32,000 nucleotides of DNA from Desulfovibrio ferrophilus (lineage in GTDB: Bacteria; Desulfobacterota; Desulfovibrionia; Desulfovibrionales; Desulfovibrionaceae), in NCBI RefSeq assembly GCF_003966735.1, contig NZ_AP017378.1:1848905-1880904 (forward strand). Direction: 5' to 3'. Positions 2,095 through 28,228 of the stretch are shown piece by piece. Each line of letters begins with the position of its first letter. The first letter of the stretch is position 1. A program made the position numbers and the translations under genes. The notes beneath the pieces are model-generated. The model did no database searches, was not told where the DNA came from, and was given only the letters and a program-made list of their open reading frames with translations.

Positions 2095-2097
2095 GGC

Positions 2098-5085: not shown

Positions 5086-5163
5086 AAAAAAATATTATAA
5101 AACGACAAACTAATTATATATTCACAAACACAGACAGTTATCTAACCAACCCCAGGCAATCAT

Positions 5164-7572: not shown

Positions 7573-7576
7573 AGCT

Positions 7577-8581: not shown

Positions 8582-8794
8582 TCACCTGCTGAGCCCCGAG
8601 TGCCTACTTAATAAATTATTCACCTCTTCTTCCCACACCCACACCCCGCGCACCTTCCCTGCCCGAAAAGCTGGAAGCTTGCCCTCATTAATCAAATTAT
8701 AAAAATGGCTCTTGGAGCAATTCAGCATCTCGCAGGCTTGCTTCCAGTTCAATTTTCGACCTTTGCCCATCTCTGCGCTTCTATCCATTTTCAT
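8582..8794 (-). CDS. Small helix-turn-helix DNA-binding protein (excisionase/AlpA/MerR-like HTH)
   Basis: 70 aa. LNWKQACEMLNCSKSHFYNLINEGKLPAFRAGKVRGVWVWEEEV matches the excisionase-family HTH pattern. Its ATG lies 2 nt after the terL stop (TAG 8797-8799). Intermediate GC. Confidence 0.6.
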   Translation of the reverse strand: MKMDRSAEMGKGRKLNWKQACEMLNCSKSHFYNLINEGKLPAFRAGKVRGVWVWEEEVNNLLSRHSGLSR

Positions 8795-8796
8795 AG

Positions 8797-11347: not shown

Positions 11348-12759
11348 CAGATCCTCACCACCAGGTTATCCGCCGTGATAATCGCGGCGGGATGTCGGTC
11401 GAGATAAGCCCCTAGTTCGTCGTCCTGAAAGCACAACTCCTTGAGCCGTCGCAGAATGCCAGTGTGTCCACGAAGGGGCTTCGGAATATCGAAAGGTTGA
11501 GAACCACTGAACGTCAGCTGAATGCCGGTCTCCCGCAGCAAACGCTCCAAGGCCGCCAGGCTGGTGGTTTTTTGTTCAGGCTGCTTAGACTCAGGTGAGG
11601 CCAGGGCCGGAGCCGAGACCTCGGGAGTGGGTTGGGGTTTGGCTGGACGCACAGGGGCCGCAGGCATGAGCATGACCGGCGGCAGGCCCGCCTTGATCCA
11701 GTCCGCGATACTCACACCCGCCGCGAAGGCCTCGCCGGGATCCTTGGCTTCGGGCACTGGCCAGCGTTCGGCGTGATCGTAGGTCACCTGCCACCAGTCA
11801 CGCACGCGGCGTTGCTGGCGCACCTTGCGCTCGGCTTCCAGCTGAGCCTTTTCGCTGCTATCCGTCGGCACGAAGGACTCAAAATCCAGTGCATTCAGAA
11901 TGGTCAGAGATTGGGAGAGGACCCCATGCGTCCAGGCATCCGGCTTGGCGGAGATAGTGCCCAGCCCCAGAGCGCCCACGTCGTCACCTGTAGCAAAGTC
12001 GCAGAGCATGGCGTCCAGCTCCGCTTCCACAGCCACAAAGGCCCGGGCACCAGGGGAGAGAACCATGGTCCCGCTACCACTGCCCGGCACCCAGCAATAT
12101 TTCTTGGGGCCAAACGGCCCGGGCTTGGGGCGGCGCACACGCACACGGTGCAGTTGACCATCATGGAAAATTGGAATCACCAAGCCCGCTGGTATCCACA
12201 ACTTGCGCGGCTTACCCGTTCGCGGGTTCATCTCGTGCGGCAAACCCCACGCCGAGCGTTCGCGGTACACATCTTTGGAGAGCCACCCCAGCCGATAACG
12301 CTCGACAGCCTCCAAAGGCAGACCTCGCCGCGCAAGGAACTCCAAAGCCTCAGAGGTCCGCAGCAGTTCAGCATGGGCCGCGACCACCAGTTCATTCGCT
12401 CGGGTGCGCCAGCGCTCGGAAGGCTCACGGGCGGGCTCTGGCTGCCACGGAGAGGCCTCACGAAGACGCCGTGGGGGCAGTAGTGGACGCGGGGCGCATG
12501 GCTCCAGCTTTCGCCCAACGAAGGCCGCAGCGGCACGAAAATCCATGTGTCGAAAATCCACCAGGTACTGAATACAATCGCCACCGGAATCGCAGCCACG
12601 GCACCACCAGCTACCATCCCCACCGTTCTGCTCAGGCCAGCAATGGAAACGATCCGTCCCACCACACCCCGGACAAGGGCTGTGGTGCTCACCACCCTTG
12701 GAACCGGACACCTTACGAGGCGAAACACCATCAGCCTGTAGTAACTCAAGCACGTTCAT
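11347..12759 (-). CDS. DNA primase with an N-terminal primase zinc-ribbon (T7 gp4 / P4 alpha type) and a probable TOPRIM region
   Basis: CPGCGGTDRFHCW…WWCRGC…GGDCIQY matches the CPxCGGxDRF primase zinc-ribbon signature. An acidic FVAVEAELDA segment is consistent with TOPRIM. 470 aa. Confidence 0.7.
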   Translation of the reverse strand: MNVLELLQADGVSPRKVSGSKGGEHHSPCPGCGGTDRFHCWPEQNGGDGSWWCRGCDSGGDCIQYLVDFRHMDFRAAAAFVGRKLEPCAPRPLLPPRRLREASPWQPEPAREPSERWRTRANELVVAAHAELLRTSEALEFLARRGLPLEAVERYRLGWLSKDVYRERSAWGLPHEMNPRTGKPRKLWIPAGLVIPIFHDGQLHRVRVRRPKPGPFGPKKYCWVPGSGSGTMVLSPGARAFVAVEAELDAMLCDFATGDDVGALGLGTISAKPDAWTHGVLSQSLTILNALDFESFVPTDSSEKAQLEAERKVRQQRRVRDWWQVTYDHAERWPVPEAKDPGEAFAAGVSIADWIKAGLPPVMLMPAAPVRPAKPQPTPEVSAPALASPESKQPEQKTTSLAALERLLRETGIQLTFSGSQPFDIPKPLRGHTGILRRLKELCFQDDELGAYLDRHPAAIITADNLVVRI

Positions 12760-13059
12760 GTGCGCCTCCCCCCTCCGACCAGTGGAAAAAGCAAATTTTC
12801 TGCATGGTCCTACCCTGCTCCTGCTTCGATCCTGGCTTTGATCCTATCTCTAACATCTTTATTTTCTTTATTATTATAAGTTAAATAGGATAATAGGATG
12901 ATAAGTGTTGATACTTGTCTGAATGTCGCAACAGTACCGTATAAGGGACTCTGCACATGAATCATCCTTGGGTCCTGGCCGCACTCTATGACCCCGAAAT
13001 TGCGGGATATTCACCCAGGAGCGAAAGCGGCTACCCGCTCCTGTCTATGGTCCTTCGTC

Positions 13060-14763
13060 CTAGAACAGCTTCTCTCCACCCATTTCCTCACGGGTTTCAG
13101 CATTGAGCAGCAGGCCGTAGTACCAATTCTTCCCCCCCACCTTTTCCTTACGGAACTTCTTCTGGGCCAACGCGCCGAACTTGCGCTGGGGGAATTGCTT
13201 CTTCTTGGAGATGTTCACCGAAAACCAGCGCACGAAGGCGTCATAGAGATCCGTAGCATTCGTGCGGGTCGAGGGATCATTCAGATCAGCGAGCACAACG
13301 TCGCAGCAGTCGTCCACGAACAAGGCCAGCAAATCCTCATCCCGGCGATAATCATCCGTAGCGGCAAGGACCTTGGCAGGCGGATTCAGGCCATGCTGTT
13401 GCCACTCCAAACAACCACGCACCAGCCAGGCGAGAATGCCCGAGGCCTCAGCCATGAGCGCTTCCCCCAGGGAGTCGTCGCGCCGCATCTCGGTCTCGTC
13501 CTCTGGCTCACGATTCACAAAAGAACGCTCAAACGGGATCAGGTGCATCCGTTCCCAAAAGGCGAAATCATCGGCCGGGGCATGGGGCTTGTGGTTAGTC
13601 AACAGAAAGAGGATGTGCGTAGGCGCAAAGGTGATGGGCCGCTTGTCGTTGGGCCAGCGGCCAGTGAGCATGTCACCGCCAGAGAGCCATTTACAACGAG
13701 CCGAAGAGAAACGACGATTTTCGTCCGTCTCGGAGGCAAACGCCGCACGAAGACCACGCAAAGCCATAATGGAAGGAGACGGTGCGTCGGAGTTGCGGAC
13801 GCTGTTCTGATCCAGCAGCATCTCCGCCGGGATTGGTCCAGCGAGTGGCCCAAGAACATGCATAATAGTTTCGACCAGCATGGATTTGCCGTTGCGCCCC
13901 TTGCCATGCAGCACCGGGAGCACATGCTCCTTGTTACCGCCGCGCATGGAAGCACCGAACAAGCGCGCCAGATAACCGGCCATCTCGGCATCATCCCCCA
14001 TAATCTCATGGAGGAACCGCTCCCAACGAGGAGCCGGGGCATCGATCCCCTGCCATTCAACGGGCGAGGCCTTAAGGATAAAATCTTCCGCCCTCCCCCC
14101 ACGAAACCGACCAGAGCGAAGGTCCAATACTCCATTTGCACAGGCCACCTGCCATTCGCGGGCATCCAATTCTTCACCAGAAATGGCCAAGGGGGTGCGG
14201 TTGGTGTGGGCAAATTCCAAGCAGGCTTCGGGGCCACCCTTCTTGCGGAGCCTTTTGACCCGGGTCATGACCATCTGCTGTTGACGTTGATAGAGCGTGG
14301 CCGCGTCCTTATTTCCGGATTGAGAGGCATCCGTAGCCGATTGCCCAAGGCGCGAATGCTCTTCCAAAAGGCGCTCCGCCACGGCTTCGACCTCGGCCTT
14401 AGCCTGGTCCATCTTATCCAATCCCCAATGGTGGCCACTCCAAACAAGCCACTCCTGGGTCTGTTTGATGAAGAGGAATCTGTCGCGGTGGATTTCCGCA
14501 TAAAGCATCCCAAGTCCGAGATCCTCCGCACGTACGCAAGGCATAACAAAATCCGAAGGAACCGTGCGGCTCCCTCCGCCAGCATGGTTATCCTGACCGT
14601 CTTGATCATCCTCGGTCTGACCGGCCCGCTCCTCCTCCGCACGTCGCGCCTGTACCTTGCGGCGCATCTCTTCCAGGTCCGAAACGGCGACTCCCTGGGT
14701 GCCGGGCACCTGATCACCAGCTTTGGCCTCTGGTCCCGACCCCGTTTTGAGCTCATGGCTCAT
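13060..14763 (-). CDS. SF3 helicase, D5 / phage-plasmid primase P4 C-terminal family
   Basis: Walker A is LHGKGRNGKSMLVETI, followed by ...LRAAFASETDE (Walker B-like). The C-terminal region is typical of D5/P4-type NTPases. 567 aa. Confidence 0.85.
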   Translation of the reverse strand: MSHELKTGSGPEAKAGDQVPGTQGVAVSDLEEMRRKVQARRAEEERAGQTEDDQDGQDNHAGGGSRTVPSDFVMPCVRAEDLGLGMLYAEIHRDRFLFIKQTQEWLVWSGHHWGLDKMDQAKAEVEAVAERLLEEHSRLGQSATDASQSGNKDAATLYQRQQQMVMTRVKRLRKKGGPEACLEFAHTNRTPLAISGEELDAREWQVACANGVLDLRSGRFRGGRAEDFILKASPVEWQGIDAPAPRWERFLHEIMGDDAEMAGYLARLFGASMRGGNKEHVLPVLHGKGRNGKSMLVETIMHVLGPLAGPIPAEMLLDQNSVRNSDAPSPSIMALRGLRAAFASETDENRRFSSARCKWLSGGDMLTGRWPNDKRPITFAPTHILFLLTNHKPHAPADDFAFWERMHLIPFERSFVNREPEDETEMRRDDSLGEALMAEASGILAWLVRGCLEWQQHGLNPPAKVLAATDDYRRDEDLLALFVDDCCDVVLADLNDPSTRTNATDLYDAFVRWFSVNISKKKQFPQRKFGALAQKKFRKEKVGGKNWYYGLLLNAETREEMGGEKLF

Positions 14764-15254
14764 GCAGCGCCTCCAGCCGGTAACACGAAGTCAGAACAAC
14801 GGACGTCAAACAGGTGTAGCGCCTGATGATTTTCCATTTTTCCACGTAATGTTTTCCGCACGCCACGCGAAAAGCGTGAGAGTTTCAGTACCCGTACTTG
14901 GGAAAGGCCAGGAAGGACCCGTGGCCTTCGGCATCGAGAAAACGGCCTATAGGACCATCTGGCTTGCTTCTTAGGGAGGGGGGAGAGGGGGAAGCGCGCG
15001 GGCCGCTGAAAACTCACAGACGTACAAGGCGCGTTCGGATCGTTCGTGCAGGTAGGTTGAAATGTGGACTCAAATACAGACACAGGGTATGATTGCGGGT
15101 CACCACAAGGCCTGCGACGGTTCGGCGCGGATAAGTAGCCGGATAAGTGAAATGCGGATTTTACACGAAAACAGGGGGTAAAAGCCTCCCCCATTAATTC
15201 ATCATAACTACCTGTAATTTGATGGAAAAGTGGGTCTACTGCGGTAACGCTCGC

Positions 15255-15304
15255 CCGGCCTTCTAAGCCGACGGCCGGGGGTTCGAATCCTCCCTGGCGC
15301 ACCA
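15255..15304 (+). other. 3' fragment of tRNA-Arg(UCU): anticodon arm, variable loop, T-arm, acceptor 3' strand and CCA. Probable prophage attachment-site scar.
   Basis: Reads CCGGC-CTTCTAA-GCCGA / CGGCC / GGGGG-TTCGAAT-CCTCC / CTGGCGC-A-CCA. No complementary GCGCCAG acceptor 5' strand or D-arm is found upstream. Confidence 0.55.
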
Positions 15305-15315
15305 TAAAATCAAAT

Positions 15316-15349
15316 GGTTCCGGTGATTTACCGGAGCCATTTTTCTTTT
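15316..15349 (+). terminator. Rho-independent terminator downstream of the tRNA fragment
   Basis: GGTTCCGGT-GATTT-ACCGGAGCC (9 bp including one G.U pair) followed by ATTTTTCTTTT. Confidence 0.6.
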
Positions 15350-15816
15350 GGTTTCTCGATTTGCCATTTTGCTCATTGCGGGCGGAAGACAAACAGACAT
15401 GGAAACACCGGGCCATCGCTGCCGCGAAGCCCCGGCCAGCGCCTCACCCATCCGCCCGGAGCCGTCCCCGCACGACGGAAATCGACAGCTTCCTTGATGG
15501 ACACCTGTGGCGTTCAAAATTTCAAAAAAAGTCCTGTGAGAACGGCCAGTCTAAGCACATAAGGGTAATGCATCACAATAGAAGCGAACGCTATATAAAC
15601 TATATTGAGAACATATAAAACAACAAAACAGCAAGTATACCATATCGAAACACATCATATGAAGACAAACAAATGAACAACGTGTTGCAAGCGCGCTAAA
15701 CATTATGTAATGTTATAAACAGGTACAATTTTATACACATTGCACCCCGGACAGAATCGGCTCGCAGGATCTGCATCACTGTTTTGCGAACGGTCCCGCC
15801 GGAAGGCTGGAATAGC

Positions 15817-18768
15817 ATGGGGCGAGTACAGACGAAAACCAAAAGCAAAAGCAAGAGCGTAGGCTCCTCCTCCCTGCAGTATGAGACGGTGCCCACCAAA
15901 ACAGCAATACCCGCCGATCAGCCAAGCCTGTTTCCCGATGCCTGCCCCGAACCGGTCATGCGGGTGGATTGCGACGGCCGGATTCAGTACGCCAACGAAG
16001 CCAGCGCGATTATTCTTGAGCATTTCAGTTGCCAGGCTGGCGAAGTTCTCCCCGAGCCGCTGTTCTCCAAGGTCTTCCCGAAGCCTTCCCCCGGCAAATG
16101 CCACAGCTTTGAAGCCCTGTGCCCCAAGGCCGTCTTCGCCCTGACCGTGGTCCCCTTCCCGGAGTACGGCTTCGTGCATGTCTACGGCCTGAACACCAGC
16201 TCACACAAACTTCACACGACCAAGCTACAAATCCGGGACCAGATTCTGGATATGTCCCAGACCGCCGTCCTCGTGACAGACCTCGAATTCCACGTCTGCT
16301 ATACCAACGCCTCCTTCCTCTACATGTGGGGATTCACCCACAAGCGGGAAGTCCATGGGCGCCGTTTCCTTGATTTCTGGGATAACGAAGCCGCCGCGTC
16401 CAAAGTGCTCCAGGCCGTTCGCAAAAAGGAATACTGGGCCGGGGAGTTGATGGCCAAGGGGCATGGCCGCCCTCCCTTCCGCATCCGGGCCTCGGCAATG
16501 CTGGTCAAGGACAAGGCCGATACCCCCCTGTGCATTGCCGGGTCGTTCATGGACATCACCGAACAGGCCCAGATCAACGAGGCCCTGCGCCACAGCGAAG
16601 AAAAATATCGCGCCTTGGTCGAAACCACCAGCGACTGGATATGGGAGGTGGATTACAACGGAGTTTACTCATACGTCAGCCCGAAGGTACAAGACATCCT
16701 GGGCTATCCTCCCGAAATTCTCCTTGGGCAGTCACCGTTCGACTTCATGCCCGTAAAGGAGGCCGCCCGAGTCTCTGCAATTTTCCATGACCACATCTCG
16801 AAACGGAAACCCTTCAAGAATCTCGAAAATACTAACTTGCACAAGGATGGCCGCCACGTGGTTCTCGAAACCAGCGCGGATCCTATTTTTGATCAAGACG
16901 GCAAGTATTTAGGATATAGAGGCATCGACAGGGACATCACCGAACGCAAACGAGCTCAAGAGACTCTCAAACAAATTCGCGACGAACTCGAACAGCGCGT
17001 CAGCGAGCGCACCAGAGAATTCGAAAAAGCACACAAGCGCCTGGAAGAAAGTGAGGCCCGCTACCGTGCGGTGCTTGAAGATCAAACTGAACTCATCTGC
17101 CGCTTCACCCCCGATGGAACGCTGACCTTCGTAAACGACGCTTACTGCCGGTACTTCGGGACGGATCGGGAACAATTGATGGGCAGATACTTCAAACCGC
17201 TCATCCCCGAAGAGGACCGCAAGAAATGCGAATTCCACTTTGCCTCGCTCACCAAGGACTCTCCCGTAGGGCGACTTAAGCACAGGACCATCATGCCCGA
17301 CGGTGAAATCCGCTGGCAACACTGGATCGATAAGGCCATCTTTGATGAGCACGATAGGCTTGTGGAATTTCAATCCGTTGGCCGAGATATCACGGCCAGC
17401 GTCCTCGTAGAACAAACCTTGCGCCGCGCCCACAAAGAGCAAGACAAGTTGCGCAACACTTTGCAAGCGGTCTTCCGTAGCATGTCCGATTCCATCATTA
17501 CCGTGGATCAGGACATGCGCCTGTTGAACAAAAACCAGGCACTGACTTCGCTCTGCACAAGGGCTCCCTACATGATCGAGGGCAAAGACCTCAATGAAGC
17601 CTTTGACAATGACCATCATCCCGCTTGCCTGCGTGTATTGAGCCAAGTATTGGAAACCAAGACCGCTATTCGCGGTTACCGGGCAGAATGCCGTTGCGGC
17701 ACTCGCTGTAACCAGGTCACCATGCTCAACGCCTCGCCCCTCATGACCAGCAACAACCAATTCGCTGGTGCGGTTCTCGTGGTCAGAGACGTCACTCGCC
17801 TAGATGAGCTGGAGAAGCGTCTGGACGAACGCGCCAGCTACCGAAGCATCGTGGGCAAAAGTGAACGAATGCGTGAGATTTACACCATTCTGGACCAACT
17901 CACTGACCTGAAAACAACAGTCCTGGTCATGGGAGATTCAGGGACCGGCAAGGAGCTTATCGTCGAGGCTCTGCACTACGGCAGCACCTGCATCACTGGC
18001 CCTCTGGTCAAGGTTAACTGCGCGGCGCTGGCTGAAAACCTGCTGGAAAGCGAACTCTTCGGCCATGTACGGGGCGCCTTTACCGGCGCAGTCCAGGACC
18101 GTATGGGCCGTTTCCAGGCCGCCGAGGGTGGCACCATCTTCCTGGACGAAATCGGGGATCTGAAGCCCAGTACACAGCTCAAGCTGCTTCGTGTCCTTGA
18201 GAGCAAGGAATATGAACGCGTTGGTGATTCAACCACGCACAAGGCAGATGTCCGGGTCGTTGCAGCCACAAATCGCAACCTCTGGGACCGGGTTCAGGAC
18301 GGGCATTTCCGCAAGGACCTCTATTACCGACTCAAGGTCATGGTCATCAAACTGCCGTCCCTGCGTGATCGAACCGGTGACATCCCATTGCTCACAGAAC
18401 ATTTCCTCGACCACTACCGGACCATCTATGGCAAGGACATCACAGGTGTCACCGGAGAGGTCATGGAGGTCTTCGTCCGCTACTCCTGGCCAGGCAATAT
18501 CCGCGAACTCAAGCATTCCCTGGAACACGCCAGCATTCTCTGTCCAGGGGGCCCCATCACGATGCGCCATCTGCCCGTGGAGTTGCAGACCCAGTTGCTG
18601 CCGGATAAACACAACGTCGACAACGCAACGCTCTGGGATTCTGAACGCGCCAGAATCTCCAAAGCCCTAGAACAGGCCCACTGGAATAAAACAGTTGCCT
18701 CAAAACTGATCGGTATCAGCCGCACCACGCTCTACCGAAAGATGCAGGAACTGGGCATCAAACCTTAG
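15817..18768 (+). CDS. Sigma54-dependent enhancer-binding protein with about five PAS domains, an AAA+ domain and a Fis-type HTH
   Basis: GDSGTGKE Walker A, ESELFGHVRGAFTGA (GAFTGA loop), GGTIFLDEIGDL Walker B, C-terminal SRTTLYRKMQELGI HTH. There are repeated PAS-like blocks (e.g. YRALVETTSDWIWEVD, YRAVLEDQTELICRFTPDG). Start at ATG 15817 is preferred over the ORF-track start. Confidence 0.9.
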   Translation: MGRVQTKTKSKSKSVGSSSLQYETVPTKTAIPADQPSLFPDACPEPVMRVDCDGRIQYANEASAIILEHFSCQAGEVLPEPLFSKVFPKPSPGKCHSFEALCPKAVFALTVVPFPEYGFVHVYGLNTSSHKLHTTKLQIRDQILDMSQTAVLVTDLEFHVCYTNASFLYMWGFTHKREVHGRRFLDFWDNEAAASKVLQAVRKKEYWAGELMAKGHGRPPFRIRASAMLVKDKADTPLCIAGSFMDITEQAQINEALRHSEEKYRALVETTSDWIWEVDYNGVYSYVSPKVQDILGYPPEILLGQSPFDFMPVKEAARVSAIFHDHISKRKPFKNLENTNLHKDGRHVVLETSADPIFDQDGKYLGYRGIDRDITERKRAQETLKQIRDELEQRVSERTREFEKAHKRLEESEARYRAVLEDQTELICRFTPDGTLTFVNDAYCRYFGTDREQLMGRYFKPLIPEEDRKKCEFHFASLTKDSPVGRLKHRTIMPDGEIRWQHWIDKAIFDEHDRLVEFQSVGRDITASVLVEQTLRRAHKEQDKLRNTLQAVFRSMSDSIITVDQDMRLLNKNQALTSLCTRAPYMIEGKDLNEAFDNDHHPACLRVLSQVLETKTAIRGYRAECRCGTRCNQVTMLNASPLMTSNNQFAGAVLVVRDVTRLDELEKRLDERASYRSIVGKSERMREIYTILDQLTDLKTTVLVMGDSGTGKELIVEALHYGSTCITGPLVKVNCAALAENLLESELFGHVRGAFTGAVQDRMGRFQAAEGGTIFLDEIGDLKPSTQLKLLRVLESKEYERVGDSTTHKADVRVVAATNRNLWDRVQDGHFRKDLYYRLKVMVIKLPSLRDRTGDIPLLTEHFLDHYRTIYGKDITGVTGEVMEVFVRYSWPGNIRELKHSLEHASILCPGGPITMRHLPVELQTQLLPDKHNVDNATLWDSERARISKALEQAHWNKTVASKLIGISRTTLYRKMQELGIKP

Positions 18769-18788: not shown

Positions 18789-18812
18789 ACAGATTGTCAT
18801 GTTACAATCTGT
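18789..18812. promoter_or_regulatory. Candidate enhancer (UAS) inverted repeat ACAGATTGT-N6-ACAATCTGT
   Basis: Perfect 9-bp arms lying 109 nt upstream of the -24 element. A second copy, 19/24 identical, occupies the equivalent position upstream of the second sigma54 promoter (28255-28278). Confidence 0.45.
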
Positions 18813-18920
18813 TTCGCGGCACACTTTAGACCCTTCCATTCGTGACGGGTCTCCCGCTTAGCGACGTACAACCCCCTGAAATCAATCAGATCAAAAACGG
18901 ACCTCGCCAAAGGCCGCAAC

Positions 18921-18936
18921 TGGCCCCCATGTTGCT
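18921..18936 (+). promoter_or_regulatory. Sigma54 (-24/-12) promoter TGGCCC-N5-TTGCT
   Basis: TGGCCCCCATGTTGCT fits TGGCAC-N5-TTGCW with exact GG/GC spacing. It lies 63 nt upstream of ATG 18998 and downstream of a sigma54 EBP gene. Confidence 0.6.
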
Positions 18937-18997
18937 TTCATCAGGACCCATGGAGTGCTCATGGGCAACCTGTCAGCGACATGCGTGGAGGGCGGAC

Positions 18998-20368
18998 ATG
19001 TACCTACAGCAAGCACTGCAGAAACTCGTGATGCCTCTGGCTCTGATGCTGCTCTGGGCAGCACCAATGACTGCGGCAGAAACCAGTCAATGCATCGAAT
19101 GCCACACCACCCCGGAAAAACTCATCAATGCCGTGAGGGAAATCGCCAGAAGTACCGTCGGAGTGCCCAGCGGATCGACCCAATTCGCAGGCGAAGGGTG
19201 AGGTGGTGCGGTGGAGCCGTTGGCTCCGCACGAAAAGGTCTTTGTGGACCGGGCTTTCCTTGAGGATGAAAACCACGGGGAAATCGATTGTCACGACTGC
19301 CACGGGGGCAACCCCGGTGAGCCAGATTTCATTGCGGCCCACGATGGACTGGTGCGCGATCCGACCACCGGCGACGCAACCCGGGTCTGCGGTGATTGCC
19401 ACGAGGAAGTGACCACCATCGCCAAGGGTAGCCTGCATGTTACCCTGAAGCCCTTCCAGCTGATGATCGACTCCCGCAGCGGCAACACCCCCGAGACCAA
19501 GGCCAATGTGGACACTGCCAGAAACGCCCATTGCGGGGCCTGCCACGCCAGTTGCGGACAATGCCATATCAGCCGCCCATCCTATGTGGGGGGAGGATTC
19601 CTGGACGGACACCAGTTCATACGCACCCCCCCCATGCGCGAAGTCTGCACGGCCTGTCACGGCAGCCGGATTGAAAACGAATATTTTGGTAAGAATCAGG
19701 GGTCGCCGCCTGACGTACATTGGCGCAAGCGCTTCTTCCGCTGCATCAAATGCCACACCGGTGAGGAAATGCATGGCGATGGTCAAACCGATGCCGCTCA
19801 CCGCTACGAGGCTCCCAGAGCACCGCGCTGCGAGGACTGCCACCTCTCCATCTACGCCGAGGGTGCCGACAACGCAAAGCAACATCGCACGCATCGGGAA
19901 CAGGTAAGTTGCCAAGTCTGTCACTCCGTGCCTTACAAGAACTGCAGCTCATGCCATGTCGCGCTCGATCGCTATGGCTTCAAGTATTTCAATAACGATG
20001 AAAACTTCCTGGGTTTCAAAATCGGGCTCAACCCCCAGCAAAGCCTTAAGCGCCCCCAAAGATTCGTGACGCTCAGGCATGTCCCCGTGGCCCCGAATCT
20101 GTTCGACTTCTACGTGGAAAACGGACTTGCCGAATTTGATGCCCTACCAACATGGAAGCTGGCCACACCCCACAATATTCGCAGGATCACCCCGCAGAAT
20201 AAGACCTGCAACGCCTGCCACGGCAACAAGGCTCTGTTCCTACTGTCAGGGGATGTATCCGAACCCTACCGACGGGCCAACGCCATGGTCATGGTTCCGG
20301 AAACCGAGATTCCACCCCGGCAGGATGAACAAGCCCTGCTGAGCATCGATCAGGGAGAAACGCCATGA
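18998..20368 (+). CDS. Periplasmic multihaem cytochrome c (about 11 CxxCH) containing an in-frame TGA at 19199-19201 (putative selenocysteine, or else a disrupted gene)
   Basis: Signal peptide MYLQQALQKLVMPLALMLLWAAPMTAA plus CIECH lie before the TGA. Ten more CxxCH motifs follow in the SAME frame (the ORF-track entries 18842-19201 and 19211-20368 are both frame 2). GGAGGG RBS before ATG 18998. Confidence 0.6.
19206..19231 (+). promoter_or_regulatory. SECIS-like hairpin immediately 3' of the in-frame UGA
   Basis: GUGC-[GGU bulge]-GGAGCC-GUU-GGCUCC-GCAC: 4+6 bp, with a bulged U and a GU in the apical loop. The loop G lies 20 nt from the U of the UGA. Confidence 0.4.
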
Positions 20369-20790
20369 AAAGAATAATGACCATTCTCCTGACCCTGACC
20401 CTCTGCACCTGCCTGGCTCAGACAGCCCTGCCCCAAGACCTAACCAAAAAGGATCTGGTGCGTGAAGCCAAGGCCGCCGTCACCCATGTCGACGTCAATC
20501 AGGCCAAACTGATGTGGGACAAGGGCGGGGTCTACTTCATCGACTGCCGCGAAGATAAAGAATTCAGGCAGGGCCACATTGCCGGGGCGCTCACCATCCC
20601 CCGGGGCTGGCTGGAATTCAAGATCGAGGAACTGGTGCCGGAACGCGACGCCAGCATCGTCCTCTACTGTCGTAGCGGGGATCGCAGCAGCCTTGGAGTC
20701 CTGTCGCTTCTCCGCATGGGCTATGGCAGAACCGTTAATCTCATAGGAGGATGGCGAGCCTGGAACAAGGCCGAATATCCGGTCGAATAG
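20365..20790 (+). CDS. Periplasmic single-domain rhodanese (sulfurtransferase)
   Basis: Signal peptide MKRIMTILLTLTLCTCLAQTA. Active-site loop YCRSGDRS. ATGA overlap with the cytochrome stop. Confidence 0.85.
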   Translation: MKRIMTILLTLTLCTCLAQTALPQDLTKKDLVREAKAAVTHVDVNQAKLMWDKGGVYFIDCREDKEFRQGHIAGALTIPRGWLEFKIEELVPERDASIVLYCRSGDRSSLGVLSLLRMGYGRTVNLIGGWRAWNKAEYPVE

Positions 20791-20820: not shown

Positions 20821-21234
20821 ATGTCCAGATTGTTTGCATTGACGGTTTGCCTACTGGCAGCGCTTCTGATCACGGTAGCGCCTTTGGCCGAAGAACAAAC
20901 CCCTGAACCGAAAGCCGTGACCATGGCCGTGGAATACGGACTGACAAGGGCCCAGATCGCCAGTTTCGACACGGCTCTCTGCGCACGTCTGATCCGCTTC
21001 GGCAAGGTCAGTCTGGCCCGGAAACAACATCTTGAGGCCAAACGATTCTTCTGGAAGGCGATTCTGGTGGAACCTACGTCCAAACTGGCCTGGATGTACT
21101 ACGACCAGGCGGTGCTGTTCACACTGGCCGACCAAGTCGAGCGCTCACCGGGACTGGTGGGGTTGCCCGGGCTGTCCGACGATCAGGAGGCGCAACCGGC
21201 TGCACCGGAACCGGAAGCCGAAGAAGGCTGCTGA
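20821..21234 (+). CDS. Secreted hypothetical protein with a Pro/Glu-rich tail ending in a C-terminal Cys
   Basis: Signal peptide MSRLFALTVCLLAALLITVAPLA, a helical core, and the tail ...DDQEAQPAAPEPEAEEGC-stop. Confidence 0.6.
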   Translation: MSRLFALTVCLLAALLITVAPLAEEQTPEPKAVTMAVEYGLTRAQIASFDTALCARLIRFGKVSLARKQHLEAKRFFWKAILVEPTSKLAWMYYDQAVLFTLADQVERSPGLVGLPGLSDDQEAQPAAPEPEAEEGC

Positions 21235-21255: not shown

Positions 21256-22443
21256 ATGAGCATCCGAGACAGCGAATTCCTGGCAACACTGAAACAGGCT
21301 TATGAACGACTGTTCATCAAAGAGTGGCCCACGGGAGTCGGCGGGATCCTCATCGGATTGATGAGCGTCATCTGTTTCACCTGGGCAAGGCCCTGGGGCG
21401 TGGTCGGCGGGTTGCGCGTCTGGGGCGACTGGTTCTTCCACAGTGTGGGGCTCTACGCCACCCCGCCGCATTCGGCCTGGATCGACACCAACTCCATCAT
21501 CACCATGGGCCTGCTCTGGGGATCATTTGCTGCCTCCCTCATCGCCCGTCAGTTCGGATTCCGCGTGCCACCCAAGCTGGAGATTGCCAAGGGCATTGTC
21601 GGCGGCACCCTGCTGGGCATCGGCGCCGGCTTGGCTGGCGGCTGCAATGTGGGCGGTTTCTATTCCGCCATCAGCGCCCTGTCCCTTTCGGGTTTCGCCA
21701 TGATGGCCGGACTGCTGGGGGGGGCCTGGCTAGGCCTCAAATATCTGTACTGGGAAATGGAACATCTGCCCTCTGGCGGCGGTGCCCAGGCCAAACCCAA
21801 AGAAAGCCGACGTGACTGGAGTCCTATCAAACCGTATCTGGGCTGGCTGGTACTCGCCTTGGGGATTGCCGCCAACGAGGTCTATCGACTCCGGGGCTAC
21901 ACCATTGAGGGAGGCATTCTGCTCTGCGGCATGGCCTTCGGATTCATTCTGGTGCGCAGCCGCTTCTGCTTTGCCAGGGCCTTCCGTGAGCCCTTCATGA
22001 CCGGCGACGCCAAGGTCACCCAGGCCGTGGCCGCAAGCCTGATGATCAGTGTTCTGGGCTTTGCGATCCTCAAATGGTCCGGGATCAGGCCCGAGATGTC
22101 CTATGTCTCCTCCAATTTCGCCCTGGGAGGAATGTTGGGCGGCTTCATCTTCGGCTTCGGCATGCTCATGACCGGAGGCTGCGGCAGCGGCACGGCCTGG
22201 CGCGCCGCCGAAGGTCAGATCAAGCTCATAGTGGCGCTGGTGGTCTTCACCCTCTCCAATTCACTGACCAAAGCAGCTATCAACTCCTCCGAGAGCATCA
22301 AGGCACTGGTGGGAACCCGAGTCTTTCTACCTGACTATCTGGGTTATCGGGGCACGGTCCTGTGCATCTTCCTGGTCCTGGCCCTGTGGTACCTGCTGGC
22401 AGCCTGGAATGAAGCCACTGATAAATTTGTTGTTGAGATGTAA
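21256..22443 (+). CDS. YeeE/YedE-family inner-membrane sulfur-compound (thiosulfate-type) transporter
   Basis: 395 aa, polytopic. Conserved Cys motifs GLAGGCNVGG and TGGCGSGTAWR are typical of YeeE/YedE. Confidence 0.9.
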   Translation: MSIRDSEFLATLKQAYERLFIKEWPTGVGGILIGLMSVICFTWARPWGVVGGLRVWGDWFFHSVGLYATPPHSAWIDTNSIITMGLLWGSFAASLIARQFGFRVPPKLEIAKGIVGGTLLGIGAGLAGGCNVGGFYSAISALSLSGFAMMAGLLGGAWLGLKYLYWEMEHLPSGGGAQAKPKESRRDWSPIKPYLGWLVLALGIAANEVYRLRGYTIEGGILLCGMAFGFILVRSRFCFARAFREPFMTGDAKVTQAVAASLMISVLGFAILKWSGIRPEMSYVSSNFALGGMLGGFIFGFGMLMTGGCGSGTAWRAAEGQIKLIVALVVFTLSNSLTKAAINSSESIKALVGTRVFLPDYLGYRGTVLCIFLVLALWYLLAAWNEATDKFVVEM

Positions 22444-22507
22444 CAGCTGGCGCGGGTCAGCGGGCTCTCCGTCCAACCCCCACCGGCATCCACAACAGGA
22501 GGACACC

Positions 22508-22747
22508 ATGACTGAGAACATCACTCCCGACGAAACCCTGGACTGCCGAGGACTGAGTTGTCCCATGCCCATGCTCAAGCTCAAGAAGGCGTTGAAGAGC
22601 ATGGCTCCGGGCACGGTTCTTGAGATGATGGGGACCGACCCCGGGACCACAAACGACATCGAACTGGGAGCCAAGAAGCAGGGCGGGGAATACCTGGGAA
22701 ACAAGGAAGCGGAAGGGTACATCAGCTACTACATCCGCAAGTCCTAA
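22508..22747 (+). CDS. tusA: TusA-family sulfur carrier
   Basis: LDCRGLSCPMPMLKLKKAL carries the CPxP active-site motif. 79 aa. AGGAGG RBS before ATG 22508. Adjacent to YeeE. Confidence 0.9.
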   Translation: MTENITPDETLDCRGLSCPMPMLKLKKALKSMAPGTVLEMMGTDPGTTNDIELGAKKQGGEYLGNKEAEGYISYYIRKS

Positions 22748-23525: not shown

Positions 23526-23768
23526 ATGATGACCGAACGCATTGAACAAGACAATCTGGACATCGGGATATGCCCCAGGCGCAAGCGCAAGAAGATGCTG
23601 CACATCCTGAACTCGGTTCCCGATGATACGCAGCGCAAACTCATCAGCACTCTGTCCCTAGGGTACCACACCATGGAGTTCCCCTTGTACGAGGAAAACA
23701 CGGACGGGGACTACGACGAGCTCATCGAACTGATCTTCGAATACGATGAAGTCGTCTCTTGGTGGTAG
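23526..23768 (+). CDS. Conserved hypothetical protein (second small gene), acidic C-terminus
   Basis: 80-aa ORF with a GGGAGG RBS. Its stop lies 2 nt before the next start. Confidence 0.5.
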   Translation: MMTERIEQDNLDIGICPRRKRKKMLHILNSVPDDTQRKLISTLSLGYHTMEFPLYEENTDGDYDELIELIFEYDEVVSWW

Positions 23769-23770
23769 CC

Positions 23771-25207
23771 ATGCGTGGCGTCGCAAAACTTCGGAAGCAG
23801 GGCCTCTACGCCCTGGCGCTAATGTCGATCCTGTGGGCGCTTACAGCCCATGGTGGGACGACGGCCCCGACGGACTGTGGAGATTGCCATGGCGAACAGG
23901 TCCAGGCTGTCTTCCGCTCGCCTCACTCCACGCTAGCGGGCATCATCAACCAGACCCGCTATCTCTGGGGCGCGCAGGACTCCGTCCTGCCCCACGTCTT
24001 CAGCGCGAACAATGCCCTGCGCCCACTCCCGCAGCCCATCCCAACTCCCCGTTCCCCGGCCATGCTGGTAGACGATTTTTTACGTAGTGAATGCCTGCAC
24101 TGCCACCTCGGCTCCCCGGGCAAGGACGGCAGACGTCCCACAGGCTGCGCCGCCTGCCACAGCCTGGAGGGTACAACGTCTTGCGGCTTGCCGGAAGCAA
24201 CGCCCAAGACGGCAGATGAACACGCCACGCGCGTGGCTGCCGCAGACGACTCGGCCTGCCTGGAATGTCACCAGGAAAACCACGTCGGCGCAGATTTCCA
24301 CGGGGTGTTTCAAGGCGAGATCTACGGAAATCAACGGCAGACCTCACCCGTCATCCAACTCACGCAGGACATCCATGCTAGCCGGGGGCTCGGCTGCCTG
24401 GATTGCCACAGCGGGGCAGAGGTCATGGGGCAAGGCGGACGCGCGCCATCGTGCACCGCCTGCCATGGGGGATATACGGGCGAACCTCCCGACCCCACGC
24501 GGCGAGGCGTTCGCCTCCAGAACGGTACAGCGATGTTCGACGCCCGGGACGGCAGGACTAGGGTTCTTCCCAGGATTTCGACGGATACTGCCGGGCACGA
24601 CGAAATGCTGCATAGTCGCCTGCGTTGCAGCGCCTGCCATGCCCAATGGGCCTTCGGGGAGTACGGCCTGTCCGTGATGCGCCTGGATGCGCCTACGCAC
24701 GACCCGCGCACGGCTCGAGCGTTGAGGAGTCCCCAAAAAAAGACGAGATGGCTGGTGGGATGGCGCTTCCGCCGCTGGGAGCAACTGCCGCTGGGCGTGG
24801 ACGCCAGAGGACGTATCTCGGTCCTACGCCCCAAGAACCAGTACCTCGTCTCCTTCACGAACTCTCTGGGACGGGTCGTGCTTGAGAGCGTGATTCCCCA
24901 GCGCGGAGACTCATCCGGCCCAGGCTGGGCCTTTCTGCCCTATGAGCCGCACACCACAGGGGCAAAGGGCCGGCTGTGCTCATCCTGCCACGAAAACCAG
25001 GAGGCAACAGGCCTCGCCCCAGCGTGGGCCGTCCCGCCTGACCTCGTCCTGTTCGAAGCGACTCCTCCCACGCCCGGAAACGGGCAGTTGTTGACGACGA
25101 AAGACGCCGAACGTTTGCTTCACTCGTCGCAGGACTTCCGCCGCCGATTCGCGGCATATCTCTCAAGGCTGCTGGAGAAGAACAGATGTTGCGTCGAACA
25201 GCCCTAG
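23771..25207 (+). CDS. Periplasmic octahaem cytochrome c
   Basis: Signal peptide MRGVAKLRKQGLYALALMSILWALTAHG. CxxCH x8: CGDCH, CLHCH, CAACH, CLECH, CLDCH, CTACH, CSACH, CSSCH. Confidence 0.8.
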   Translation: MRGVAKLRKQGLYALALMSILWALTAHGGTTAPTDCGDCHGEQVQAVFRSPHSTLAGIINQTRYLWGAQDSVLPHVFSANNALRPLPQPIPTPRSPAMLVDDFLRSECLHCHLGSPGKDGRRPTGCAACHSLEGTTSCGLPEATPKTADEHATRVAAADDSACLECHQENHVGADFHGVFQGEIYGNQRQTSPVIQLTQDIHASRGLGCLDCHSGAEVMGQGGRAPSCTACHGGYTGEPPDPTRRGVRLQNGTAMFDARDGRTRVLPRISTDTAGHDEMLHSRLRCSACHAQWAFGEYGLSVMRLDAPTHDPRTARALRSPQKKTRWLVGWRFRRWEQLPLGVDARGRISVLRPKNQYLVSFTNSLGRVVLESVIPQRGDSSGPGWAFLPYEPHTTGAKGRLCSSCHENQEATGLAPAWAVPPDLVLFEATPPTPGNGQLLTTKDAERLLHSSQDFRRRFAAYLSRLLEKNRCCVEQP

Positions 25208-25596: not shown

Positions 25597-26457
25597 ATGA
25601 GGCACGAACCGCTCAGACAATGCCCGTGTTGGTGGAAACTTTTGTCCGGCCTGTTTCTGCCCTGCCTGATCATCAGTCTAAGCTCCGGTTTAGTCCTCCT
25701 CTTCCAGTACCGCCCCCAGGGCAACGTCTTCCAGAGCGTCGAGCACATCACCACCCTGGTGCCCTATGGATTTTTCTTCAGACGGCTCCACTTCGCCAGT
25801 GGGCAGGCCTGCGCCCTCTTGGCCCTGATCCATGTGACGCATCACCTCGCCAAAGGAGCCTCTGCCCGCACTTCCCTCAGAGTCTGGCTGCGCCTGACCG
25901 GCGGACTGGGCATCTGTTTCCTGCTCCTGCTCACGGGCTTCATTCTCAAGGGCGATCAGGAATCCGTGCTGGCCGGGACCATCCTCAAGAACCTCGCGGG
26001 GGCCGTGCCCCTTGTGGGAGCGTGGCTGGCTCCCTTGGCCGTAGGCGAGGGCCAGTCCTTTTTCCTGCCGCCCTACATCGCCCATTGCTTCATTTTACCC
26101 GTGGCGCTGCTCGCCCTGTTGCATGGGCATCTGCGCTCCTGGCGGCCCGACAACAACACACTGGCCATTGCCGCGCTCCTCCTGGGGGGGTGGACCGTGA
26201 CCGTGCCCCTGGGCCTGCCCGCACCCCCAGGAATGCCCGTGGACGGGGCGTCCGGCCCCTGGTTTTTACTGGGATTGCAGGAACTTTTACGACTCATGCC
26301 CCCCCTCTGGGGTGGCATCATCCTGCCCGGACTATTCTTCGTGCTGGTCGCGGCCCTGCCCATTCTGCGAGGGCGCTGGGCCAAGCCCGCGCACTACGCG
26401 GTGCTGATCTGCGTAGGGTTGTACCTGCTGCTCGAACTGAAACGGGCCTTGGCCTGA
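25597..26457 (+). CDS. Cytochrome b-like membrane subunit
   Basis: 286 aa, polytopic. His pair H...H at i/i+14 (RRLHFASGQACALLALIH) and a second pair in YIAHCFILPVALLALLHGH, as in bc/b6f cytochrome b. Confidence 0.8.
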   Translation: MRHEPLRQCPCWWKLLSGLFLPCLIISLSSGLVLLFQYRPQGNVFQSVEHITTLVPYGFFFRRLHFASGQACALLALIHVTHHLAKGASARTSLRVWLRLTGGLGICFLLLLTGFILKGDQESVLAGTILKNLAGAVPLVGAWLAPLAVGEGQSFFLPPYIAHCFILPVALLALLHGHLRSWRPDNNTLAIAALLLGGWTVTVPLGLPAPPGMPVDGASGPWFLLGLQELLRLMPPLWGGIILPGLFFVLVAALPILRGRWAKPAHYAVLICVGLYLLLELKRALA

Positions 26458-26467: not shown

Positions 26468-28228
26468 ATGCGGACGCTCATCATCCTGCTTGCCTTTCTC
26501 GTCCTGGCCGCGACCGTGACCCGGCAGGAAAACCATCTGGCCGCCTCCAGAGGCAATCCCCGCGAAGGTTGCATATCCTGCCATATGGCACGCGGAGGGC
26601 TGGGATCTGCAGCCCATGACGCGGTGACCATGGGCTGCTCGTCCTGCCACCTCGGCAACCCCCACGCCTTCGAGGCCGACAGAGCCCACCAAGGCATGGT
26701 GGTCAACCCTGGCGACCTGCGCGTGGCGGCGCAGACCTGCGGCCAGCGGCAATGCCATCCGGCCATGGTCCCTGCGGTCAAGCATTCGGTCATGGCCACG
26801 GCCAGCGGCATCCTGGGAGCCCTGGACTCTCTCTGGGGCATCGATCACGGCCCACGCAACGCAGCCCTGCTCTGGGACCAAGCCCCAACCGTCCGAACGG
26901 CCCCCGAACAGTATTTCGCCAAGCTCTGCGCAGCCTGCCACCTGTGGTGGCCCAAAGGACGCGGGCGAGGAGAACAGACGGCACGGGGCGGGGGGTGTAG
27001 CGCCTGCCACGTGGTCTCCAGTCCCGGAAAAGCTTTCTTGCTCGCGGGTGAATTCGACCATTGCGCACTGTCCATGCAGGTGCCCCTAGATAACTGCGTG
27101 CGCTGCCACAACCGCTCGGCGCGCGTGGGCCTGACCTACCAGGGCCAGTGGGAAGCCAACGGCTACGGCACTCCGCACACGCAAGGAACCCTCAACGCCC
27201 GTCGGCTCTCGGGAGGACGATTCTTCCAGTCCATCCCGCCGGACGCCCATTTCCAGGCGGGGATGGTCTGCATCGACTGTCACACTGGAACCGAACTGAT
27301 GGGCGGGGGCCTGGCCCACCGCCGTCTGCGGGACCAGTTGGACGTGGCCTGCCAGGATTGCCACGCTCCCAGATTCTCATCCGGACGGGACGCCCTGGCC
27401 GAAGCCGCCCGGATGGCGAAATTGAACCCCGCGGTTCCCACCTTCGAGGCACGGGCCGTAGCCACAACCAGCCGCGGGGCCACCCCCCTCTACGCCCTGC
27501 AGCTGTCAACCAGGCCCGGAGACGGTCCGTCGCGACAACCGCAAAACCCGCAGGCCCTGCTCTTTCGTAAACTGGACGGCAAGCCGCTTCTCCTGTCCCT
27601 ACCTGCCAACCCCGCCGAGCATCACGCCTTGCCTGGACATGAACGTCTGACCTGCCAGGCCTGCCACAGTCGGTTCATGCCCCGCTGCTACGGTTGCCAT
27701 GTCCAACTCGATCCCACCGGGCGGCAGTATGATGCCCTGGCGGACGAACACACGTCGGGCAAATGGCAGGAAAGCGCCTCCCACACGCGCTTCGAGGATC
27801 CGCCGCTGGCCGTGGACGCAACAGGGCGGCTGGCCCCGTATTCGCCCTGCGAGGTGCGCGTGGACCTTTGCCCGGAACAAGGCCGGACCCCGATGGCCCC
27901 GGCACGAAACGCCATAGCCTTCTTCGATCCGCATTCCACGGTCCCCCCGGCCAGAACATGCCAGGACTGCCATCTGGCCCTGCTGGGCCCAAGCCTAGAG
28001 GCCCTGGGGAATCCCGCGTGGCAGGCCTTCCCGGACGGCGGCAGGAAACTGAACGCAGACGAACGGCGCGCCGCTGCCGAGGTCACCCCATGCCTGCCCT
28101 GTCATGCCCGTTACGACGACGCCGTATTCAAGGACTTCGCCGCGAGCCGCAAGCGCCTCGCGGTCGGAGCGGCAACGGCCTGCACCGCGCCCCGAACCGC
28201 AATTTCTGTAGCAAGGAAAGGACAATGA
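26468..28228 (+). CDS. Periplasmic multihaem cytochrome c (about 11 CxxCH plus one CxxxxCH)
   Basis: Signal peptide MRTLIILLAFLVLAATV. Motifs CISCH, CSSCH, CGQRQCH, CAACH, CSACH, CVRCH, CIDCH, CQDCH, CQACH, CYGCH, CQDCH, CLPCH. Confidence 0.85.
   Translation: MRTLIILLAFLVLAATVTRQENHLAASRGNPREGCISCHMARGGLGSAAHDAVTMGCSSCHLGNPHAFEADRAHQGMVVNPGDLRVAAQTCGQRQCHPAMVPAVKHSVMATASGILGALDSLWGIDHGPRNAALLWDQAPTVRTAPEQYFAKLCAACHLWWPKGRGRGEQTARGGGCSACHVVSSPGKAFLLAGEFDHCALSMQVPLDNCVRCHNRSARVGLTYQGQWEANGYGTPHTQGTLNARRLSGGRFFQSIPPDAHFQAGMVCIDCHTGTELMGGGLAHRRLRDQLDVACQDCHAPRFSSGRDALAEAARMAKLNPAVPTFEARAVATTSRGATPLYALQLSTRPGDGPSRQPQNPQALLFRKLDGKPLLLSLPANPAEHHALPGHERLTCQACHSRFMPRCYGCHVQLDPTGRQYDALADEHTSGKWQESASHTRFEDPPLAVDATGRLAPYSPCEVRVDLCPEQGRTPMAPARNAIAFFDPHSTVPPARTCQDCHLALLGPSLEALGNPAWQAFPDGGRKLNADERRAAAEVTPCLPCHARYDDAVFKDFAASRKRLAVGAATACTAPRTAISVARKGQ

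Follow-up and report, generated by a model that had tools for sequence, protein, structure and literature searches.

The in-frame TGA at 19199-19201 in a 32,000-nt stretch of the Desulfovibrio ferrophilus genome (contig NZ_AP017378.1, positions 1,848,905 to 1,880,904 of the forward strand; hereafter the window, numbered from its first nucleotide) is very probably a selenocysteine (Sec) codon lying within one gene for an exported 11-haem cytochrome c, and the hairpin downstream of it is, with the same high confidence, its selenocysteine insertion sequence (SECIS) element. We read the codon in this way because the UGA is conserved among homologous loci, because Sec and Cys forms pair at the same column of the family, and because a covarying SECIS hairpin is tied to the UGA. 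A sequence-only reading of the same DNA had already placed selenocysteine at this codon, and the conservation of the TGA, the cysteines at the same column and the covariation of the hairpin all speak for that assignment. Judged from these sequence comparisons, the cytochrome represents a new, widespread and mis-annotated selenoprotein family, which falls within the recently established class of multihaem cytochrome c selenoproteins and is not a member of the MccSep family.

One predicted gene across the TGA codon

The TGA is the sole break between two open reading frame (ORF) pieces of the same frame (18842..19201 and 19211..20368). The upstream piece carries a hydrophobic signal-like segment and a single CxxCH haem motif (CIECH, 19091..19105, plus strand), the only haem motif upstream of the codon and one kept in 52/52 sequences; the downstream piece carries ten CxxCH motifs without an N-terminal export signal and could not, for want of a signal peptide, mature by itself as a c-type cytochrome. 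The sequence-only reading had described the same layout, one frame split by the TGA only, with signal peptide and one CxxCH motif before it and ten after, and we find coordinates, frame and translation in agreement. Its further claim that the two halves make up one protein also holds among the homologous loci, which are never genuinely split and in which third-position wobble continues through the TGA in one frame.

Read as a single gene (18998..20368, plus strand, stop codon included), the locus encodes an undecahaem cytochrome c of 456 residues, predicted to be periplasmic, with 1 + 10 CxxCH motifs, Sec at residue 68 and a frame that is uninterrupted except for the TGA. Translation likely starts at ATG 18998, which is preceded by a GGAGGG Shine-Dalgarno sequence at 18987-18992 and, further upstream, by a sigma-54-type promoter; GTG 18842 was rejected as the start. 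By inspection of the translation, a signal peptide of the general secretory type is predicted at 18998..19078 (plus strand; MYLQQALQKLVMPLALMLLWAAPMTAA), and the homologues have clearer signal or lipoprotein peptides than the D. ferrophilus copy. The predicted Sec codon (U68; 19199..19201, plus strand) stands in a G-E-G-U-G-G motif within the context FAGEG-U-GGAVEPLAPHEK, and the tryptic peptide spanning residue 68 would be STVGVPSGSTQFAGEG-U-GGAVEPLAPHEK. Across the family, all 11 haem motifs are conserved together with G65-E66-G67-U68-G69-G70, and the arginines R160, R224, R269 and R360 are invariant.

In public databases the gene is truncated and goes under the label 'hypothetical protein' or 'cytochrome c family protein': WP_126378598.1 and BBD08475.1 are both 100% identical to the downstream ORF piece and both begin after the TGA. 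On the opposite strand, a 306-aa ORF (19004-19924, minus strand) lies across part of the cytochrome gene and recurs in 44 loci, where it looks 'conserved'; we rejected it as a gene and regard it as the shadow that the conserved sense frame casts in GC-rich DNA.

Conservation of the TGA and exchange with cysteine

A protein search over ~5.8 billion proteins returned 2316 matches, of which the best 120 were inspected. About 118 of these 120 are roughly 371 aa long and begin exactly after the TGA column (M-E/T-PLAPHEK), and only two are full-length, while tblastn alignments continue across the stop in 50+ loci. When the DNA of homologous loci was fetched, with one genome per species as the source, and the column mapped across them, the codon at the Sec position proved to be TGA in 49/51 loci, TGG in one (L042) and TGT in one (L043). 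These loci come from at least six phyla overall and include several orders of Desulfobacterota, Anaerolineae, Dehalococcoidia, Acidimicrobiia, Actinomycetes, Phycisphaerae, Leptospirales, Spirochaetaceae, Deferribacteres and others. In every locus the same frame also contains the upstream piece, with its signal or lipoprotein peptide and CxxCH motif. On either side of the TGA the neighbouring codons (GGN GAR GGN before it, GGN GGN after it) differ at third positions only, about 55-60% of the time, and variation restricted in this way indicates that both flanks are translated in a single frame and are under purifying selection.

HMMER, run exhaustively over 1.84 billion cluster representatives (50% identity), gave 146 sequences at E <= 1e-30 and 302 at E <= 1e-10, and among them natural Cys forms. 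The full-length homologue P0045 (locus L081) has TGC at the Sec column, as L043 has TGT, and in several distant representatives, likewise full-length, a Cys occupies this very column at an unchanged spacing of 12 residues before a conserved E-K: P0140 reads SSCGGEAPPLKKYEK, P0144 ESCGG, P0145 and P0158 GECCGG, P0157 DGCGG and P0183 GGGCGG. The homologue comparison that the sequence-only reading had proposed thus came out on the side of Sec, with TGA in nearly all loci and Cys in other members of the family.

A covarying hairpin with SECIS geometry

The predicted bacterial SECIS element (19211..19229, plus strand) consists of an 8-bp stem, in which 19211-19218 pairs with 19222-19229, closed by the apical loop GUU at 19219-19221. 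It starts 9 nt downstream of the UGA and places its loop G 17 nt from that codon; counted from the U of the UGA, the loop G (G19219) lies at 20 nt, which is the distance that the sequence-only reading had given. The segment 19199-19240 folds with a minimum free energy (MFE) of -16.2 kcal/mol (z = -2.15), and 5/200 shuffled sequences fold as well. The published model of bacterial SECIS (bSECIS) elements allows a loop of 3-9 nt with a G in its first two positions (G[G|U]N) and a stem of 4-16 bp (PMC13188914), together with a distance of 16-37 nt from the UGA to the loop and an MFE of at most -7.5 kcal/mol (PMC13188914). The GUU loop, the 8-bp stem, the 17-nt distance and the -16.2 kcal/mol fold lie within all of these limits, in line with the earlier claim that the geometry fits a bacterial SECIS.

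A single folded sequence is weak evidence; the comparative evidence, which puts the feature well past what chance would give, comes for the stem from an ungapped alignment of the hairpin in 49 sequences. In this alignment 90.2% of cells pair, as against 32-48% in slid controls; double compensatory changes occur in 6/8 stem pairs (55 cells), and 0/500 shuffles match the observed score. The stem is found as GGAGCC/GGCUCC, GGCUCC/GGAGCC, GCCUCC/GGAGGC, GGCGCC/GGCGCC and GUGCCGG/CCGGCAC, and the peptide that it encodes switches from E-P-L-A-P to A-P-L-E-P with pairing preserved. The loop G and the third loop U are invariant across the alignment. Third codon positions are frozen, with variation of 0.08 at +14, 0.00 at +20 and 0.08 at +23, against about 57% at flanking third positions, and it is this near-absence of variation that points to constraint at the RNA level. 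The D. ferrophilus hairpin is an exact match to the family consensus. In genes of the Cys type the loop GUU has become ACA (L081, TGC) or the hairpin is absent (L043, TGT). The element is kept, with compensatory changes, in TGA-containing homologues, where its lack would have counted as a refutation for the sequence-only reading, and it loses its loop motif in Cys forms. Its drawing of the hairpin survives in part: the upper 6-bp helix is paired in 93.6% of cells and compensated at all six of its six pairs, whereas the lower GUGC/GCAC helix with its GGU bulge, bulged U included, pairs in only 53.7% of cells and was rejected.

From the established mechanism of Sec decoding, the hairpin would recruit SelB-GTP-Sec-tRNA(Sec), and the ribosome would insert Sec68 with no termination at the UGA. 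A reference for such elements is available in the same genomes, as the canonical Sec site of FdhA (EHQARI-U-HSATV) is encoded in six related loci, where its SECIS has an 8-bp stem and a G-initiated triloop. Like the FdhA/FdhF elements, the cytochrome hairpin is a coding-region stem-loop just after the UGA, with a small G-initiated loop and a spacing within 16-37 nt; the FdhA element has its 3-nt loop GGC at +26 and the cytochrome its GUU at +20, and the two differ in sharing no primary-sequence similarity. The FdhA-like molybdoenzyme itself, which bears a twin-arginine (Tat) signal, is encoded with an FdhB-like ferredoxin 2-6 kb downstream of the pair formed by the cytochrome and a rhodanese gene in six or seven Desulfobacterota loci (FdhA-carrying loci: L001, at 12005-12580, L004, L016, L036, L042 and L050), and could reflect a selenoprotein gene neighbourhood or a functional link.

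Alternatives to selenocysteine insertion

Several observations weigh against selenocysteine at this position. The single-sequence fold statistics are modest (z = -2.15 for the segment given above and -0.71 in a 71-nt context), and an Rfam scan of the window returned no family at threshold. The Sec column is occupied by His in P0146 and by Tyr in P0164, and P0124, P0127 and P0132 show nothing comparable there; since these members have neither Sec nor Cys, the residue is not essential in every member of the family. A lineage with TGG (Trp) at the column retains an intact hairpin in two independent chromosomes of metagenome-assembled genomes (MAGs); its site was located at 6160-6162 of L042 (CP070657.1) and occurs also in P0271. 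This lineage is narrow: P0272, a relative at >=90% identity, is truncated at the column, and Cys is present in a sister group of 82% identity. The lineage has retained a TGA-containing FdhA and lost the rhodanese partner; the TGG variant may be a recent loss of the Sec-dependent function.

We weighed three other accounts of the TGA against selenocysteine. Were it a true stop, whether through a sequencing error, a recent nonsense mutation that left a pseudogene or a gene that is genuinely split, the locus would yield a small monohaem protein and a separately initiated ten-haem protein. The two database records of the D. ferrophilus protein are annotated as starting after the TGA, and GTG 19211 could in principle serve as a start; yet the apparent starts of truncated homologues vary and fall inside the conserved hairpin, the downstream piece lacks the signal peptide needed for maturation, full-length Cys forms occur in nature, both sides evolve under purifying selection in a common frame, and the presence of TGA at an identical column in 49/51 species-level genomes of several phyla effectively refutes a stop, to which we assign a vanishingly small probability. 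If instead a near-cognate or suppressor tRNA inserted Trp, Cys or Gly at the UGA, with the hairpin as a generic stimulator of read-through, the Trp variant with its intact hairpin in two MAG chromosomes would find a ready place. The substitute that recurs across distant clades is, however, Cys, the hallmark of Sec/Cys pairing; the hairpin carries the bSECIS signature, a small apical loop with a G followed by a U, 17 nt from the codon, and is similar to the SECIS of FdhA in the same genomes; where the codon is TGC, the loop motif has decayed; and the Trp lineage, being one narrow clade that keeps its Sec-containing FdhA and has lost the rhodanese, fits a loss of function rather than an equivalence of Trp and Sec. 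Read-through without Sec is on these grounds very improbable.

The remaining account accepts the selenoprotein family and makes the D. ferrophilus copy a non-expressed relic in a strain without Sec machinery. Within the literature covered, nothing was found on selenium use by D. ferrophilus; in the window, ARAGORN detected no tRNA, and hence no tRNA-Sec, and no genes of the Sec machinery are present. Against a relic stand the gene itself, intact on both sides of the TGA with all 11 haem motifs and the family-invariant residues, the hairpin that equals the family consensus, the preserved sigma-54 promoter, Shine-Dalgarno sequence and whole operon, and the documented use of Sec by Desulfovibrio species, for example in the [NiFeSe] hydrogenase DVU_1918 (PMC1914089). 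An intact gene, a consensus hairpin and an intact operon argue that the locus is functional, and we hold a relic to be highly unlikely. Selenocysteine insertion at 19199-19201 is accordingly the reading we retain for the cytochrome. The window holds no further convincing candidate for a read-through TGA: the TGA at 21232, between a 137-aa ORF and the downstream YedE gene, is without a hairpin (-7.7 kcal/mol) and was rejected as a Sec codon in favour of an ordinary stop.

Relation to known haem and selenium proteins

The sequence-only reading knew of no described Sec-containing multihaem cytochrome family, a statement now outdated by the publication of MccSep/ExtKL (PMC13510729), though that family is not this one. 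MccSep (ExtKL; GSU2937-2936, NF040886, PDB 9WT8/9WT9), from Geobacter sulfurreducens, is a pentahaem polysulfide reductase whose coding region neighbours that of the rhodanese ExtH (PMC13510729), and the U325 of MccSep lies on a C-terminal immunoglobulin-like (Ig-like) domain, adjacent to a haem ligated by His and Cys (PMC13510729). The protein had been flagged in 2007 for the first time (PMC1914089) and was described as a multihaem selenoprotein in 2025/2026 (PMC13510729). The likenesses are many: each protein is a multihaem c-type cytochrome of the periplasm, with one Sec that a UGA encodes and a SECIS directly downstream; annotations split or truncate the genes of both; Sec forms stand beside Cys forms in either family, and both families occur mainly in anaerobic sulfur-cycling bacteria; and both genes adjoin a rhodanese, the D. 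ferrophilus gene lying in addition near ExtM/N/P-like cytochromes in a mirror of the Geobacter ext cluster (ExtH beside ExtKL, with ExtM-S). The differences lie in architecture and in sequence. MccSep has 5 haems and the present protein 11 CxxCH motifs; U325 stands in D-G-U-P on an Ig-like domain at the C-terminus, whereas Sec68 stands in G-E-G-U-G-G before haems 2-11; and the haem-ligating C239 of MccSep has no equivalent here in the form of a conserved non-haem Cys. The MccSep entries 9WT8/9WT9, although present in the PDB set, were not retrieved at E <= 10 by phmmer or by a 61-sequence family profile, and NCBIfam NF040886 (ExtKL) gave no match to the cytochrome at E <= 10. With the single protein or the family profile as query, PDB sequence searches found weak partial matches to generic multihaem modules only (UndA, E = 4e-4). 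Membership in MccSep/ExtKL was rejected on the absence of sequence or profile similarity, the 11 versus 5 haems, the N-terminal position of Sec and the lack of a partner Cys; we propose by analogy that the cytochrome is a functional analogue of MccSep with ExtH and not a sequence relative.

Two other groups of CxxCH proteins of anaerobes with recorded Sec forms, the tetrathionate-reductase-family octahaem cytochromes (TIGR04315) and the GSU2204 family (NF041027), resemble the present family in these respects (PMC13188914). Membership was rejected in both, the match to TIGR04315 scoring 17.8 bits over 74 residues against a cutoff of 375 and NF041027 giving no match at E <= 10. ExtKL, TIGR04315 and the GSU2204 family are the only cytochrome-type entries, three in number, in the 2026 catalogue of prokaryotic selenoproteins, and none corresponds to the family described here (PMC13188914). 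Within the literature covered, we found no paper that mentions the cytochrome gene or its accessions.

The glycine flanks of the predicted Sec are also reminiscent of sulfur carriers. SoxY, a haem-free Ig-like carrier and partner of SoxZ, bears a GGCGG swinging arm at its C-terminus, and in the Sud-Psr system of Wolinella polysulfide reduction is coupled to a rhodanese; the cytochrome shares with them a glycine-flanked chalcogen, most plainly in the Cys-type P0183 (GGGCGG), and a periplasmic rhodanese-type sulfurtransferase partner. It differs from SoxY in being an 11-haem protein with the motif inside the chain, at residue 68 of 456, and not a haem-free carrier with the motif at its C-terminus. 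Pfam and NCBIfam scans of the window proteins gave no match to Sox families. The SoxY likeness to which the sequence-only reading had drawn attention therefore stands for the glycine flanks and falls for the internal motif, the haem protein and the missing Sox match, and we keep it as an analogy only.

Operon, neighbours and regulation

Immediately upstream, the window encodes a multi-PAS sigma-54-dependent activator (15784..18768, plus strand; Pfam Sigma54_activat, several PAS domains and HTH_8), which is likely the regulator of the cytochrome operon; a sigma-54/PAS activator precedes the homologous gene in ~10 related loci. A sigma-54-type promoter, TGGCCCCCATGTTGCT (GG-N10-GC; TGGC-N7-TTGC), is predicted at 18921..18936 (plus strand), ~60 nt upstream of ATG 18998. 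Such a motif recurs at nearly the same offset in two further Desulfovibrionaceae loci (L003 and L012) and upstream of the gene in ~8 more, against a background rate of 0.07 per 600 nt. About 110 bp upstream of the promoter, a perfect 8-bp inverted repeat, CAGATTGT-N6-ACAATCTG (18790..18811), was read from the sequence and is possibly a binding site for the activator. Repeat, promoter and PAS activator together suggest tightly regulated, signal-dependent expression.

The cytochrome gene is followed by that of a single-domain periplasmic rhodanese with the active-site loop CRSGDRS (20365..20790, plus strand; Pfam Rhodanese, E = 1.8e-18), whose start overlaps the cytochrome stop (ATGA). A rhodanese is linked to the cytochrome in 42/52 loci, most of the remaining 10 being truncated contigs: an exported single-domain rhodanese lies directly downstream in 32/52, and 10 others, of Chloroflexota or Actinomycetota type, have a tandem-rhodanese lipoprotein directly upstream. 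P0131 and P0164 are natural fusions of the cytochrome with two rhodanese domains, and it is such fusions that account for the JGI label 'thiosulfate/3-mercaptopyruvate sulfurtransferase' among the homologues. Architecture varies within the family (P0131, P0164, P0126, P0128 and P0146), with tandem-rhodanese C-termini in some members and, in others, long extra multihaem extensions with matches to MtrC/MtrF-like domains, together with a C-terminal transmembrane anchor.

Beyond the pair, the D. ferrophilus operon encodes a small exported protein with a Pro/Glu-rich tail ending in ...PEPEAEEGC (20821..21234, plus strand), which is common only to Desulfovibrionaceae loci (the L012 homologue ends in ...EEEGC) and matched no family in Pfam or NCBIfam. 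Its C-terminal Cys, borne on an acidic flexible tail and encoded between the rhodanese and YedE, is possibly a sulfur-carrier arm. There follow a YedE/YeeE-type membrane transporter of sulfur or selenium compounds in its Cys form (21256..22443, plus strand; Pfam Sulf_transp, E = 2.4e-51), which scores below the cutoffs of NCBIfam YedE/FdhT and TsuA, and a TusA/YedF-like sulfurtransferase (22409..22747, plus strand; Pfam TusA, E = 9.9e-24). YedE/YeeE and rhodanese are present here as Cys forms, and both families also have catalogued Sec forms (YeeE/YedE GUxSG and rhodanese-related selenoproteins), so that the operon consists largely of families prone to Sec/Cys exchange. Further downstream lie two ExtM/ExtN-like multihaem cytochromes (23759-25207 and 26468-28228, plus strand; NCBIfam ExtM and ExtN/ExtO, below equivalog cutoffs) and, between them, an ExtP-like cytochrome b (25597-26457, plus strand; NCBIfam ExtP, below its equivalog cutoff), together a candidate module for electron transfer from quinol to the periplasm; L003 shows synteny for this set. 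Farther along, the window encodes ATP sulfurylase (Sat), and the succession of small EEGC protein, YedE, TusA, ExtM/N/P-like genes and Sat after the cytochrome-rhodanese pair is found only in D. ferrophilus, L003 and L012.

Directly beside this sulfur/selenium operon, positions 1-15400 of the window have the appearance of a prophage remnant or mobile region. It encodes on the minus strand an SppA-type protease (2098-3396), a lambda-type portal protein (3290-4807) and a primase-like protein (11347-12759), and also includes a pentapeptide-repeat protein and several large ORFs without a family match.

Proposed function in sulfane-sulfur chemistry

By analogy and with somewhat less than even confidence, we propose that the cytochrome is a periplasmic sulfane-sulfur oxidoreductase in which Sec68 acts as the nucleophile and the substrates are polysulfide, persulfide or thiosulfate-type compounds; tetrathionate and selenite are further candidates, and the enzyme may work in the reductive or in the oxidative direction. 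Sulfane-sulfur redox chemistry is suggested by the rhodanese, linked to the cytochrome in most loci and fused to it in some members. Sec68 would sit after haem 1 and before the ten-haem core, on a Gly-rich loop (G-E-G-U-G-G) that is probably flexible; there the rhodanese would deliver or accept a sulfur atom by way of a Se-S intermediate on Sec68; the haem chain would then give the electrons that resolve this intermediate, or take them, and would link the chemistry to the quinone pool. In D. ferrophilus the source of the electrons could be the module of ExtM/N/P-like cytochrome b and multihaem proteins encoded downstream; sulfur species would be handled by YedE and TusA at the membrane and in the cytoplasm, and the PAS sigma-54 activator would govern expression from the sigma-54 promoter. 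The TGG lineage (L042), in which Sec is replaced and the rhodanese is missing as well, speaks for this proposal. On the opposite side of the balance, the proposal draws only on gene context and analogy; 11 conserved non-motif His are available for 11 haems, all of which could be bis-His ligated with no open catalytic haem evident; the family has no conserved Cys outside the CxxCH motifs and the Sec column; and a model of the natural Cys homologue P0045 has a mean predicted local distance difference test score (pLDDT) of 65, falling to <50 for residues 1-82, which include the Sec loop. A Foldseek search of this model against the PDB gave no meaningful match. We dropped an earlier argument, by which an open or Sec-ligated haem was a necessity, because the 11 conserved His match the 11 haems.

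A bolder version, which we regard as speculative and rather unlikely, would make the family a second, independently evolved haem-selenium platform, with Sec68 as a Gly-hinged swinging arm carrying sulfane sulfur, or as a distal axial haem ligand, without a partner Cys, and would imply a previously unrecognised route of sulfur-compound respiration or disproportionation well beyond Desulfobacterota. We know of no His/Sec-ligated haem described in nature. It is likewise improbable, though deserving of weight, that Sec is real and the enzyme handles selenium or tellurium oxyanions, in selenite reduction or selenium acquisition, with the rhodanese, YedE and the TusA/YedF-like protein as a selenium relay. 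The best NCBIfam matches of the neighbours are to 'selenite/tellurite reduction operon' families (ExtM/ExtN/ExtP) and 'selenium metabolism' families (YedE/FdhT, YedF), all below cutoff, and MccSep also reduces selenite (PMC13510729). Those neighbours occur, however, in three Desulfovibrionaceae loci only, whereas the rhodanese is the sole family-wide partner; the window contains the gene for Sat; and MccSep prefers polysulfide, its physiological role being sulfur respiration (PMC13510729).

Implications for sulfur and selenium redox biology

To our knowledge, no multihaem cytochrome was known to use Sec until 2025. In MccSep, the combination of haem and Sec provided the long-sought catalyst of sulfur respiration in Geobacter (PMC13510729). 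The truncated public records of the family described here lose the signal peptide, the first haem and the predicted catalytic residue, and owing to this truncation metabolic reconstructions and cytochrome censuses, including those of the iron-corroding D. ferrophilus IS5, miss or misread the protein. As IS5 is a cultured strain, the prediction is directly testable there. The family extends from sulfate reducers to uncultured Chloroflexota, Actinomycetota, Planctomycetota and Spirochaetota, in which sulfur-compound respiration is poorly understood, and haem-selenium chemistry may be a repeated evolutionary answer to the demands of sulfur or selenium redox and not a one-off.

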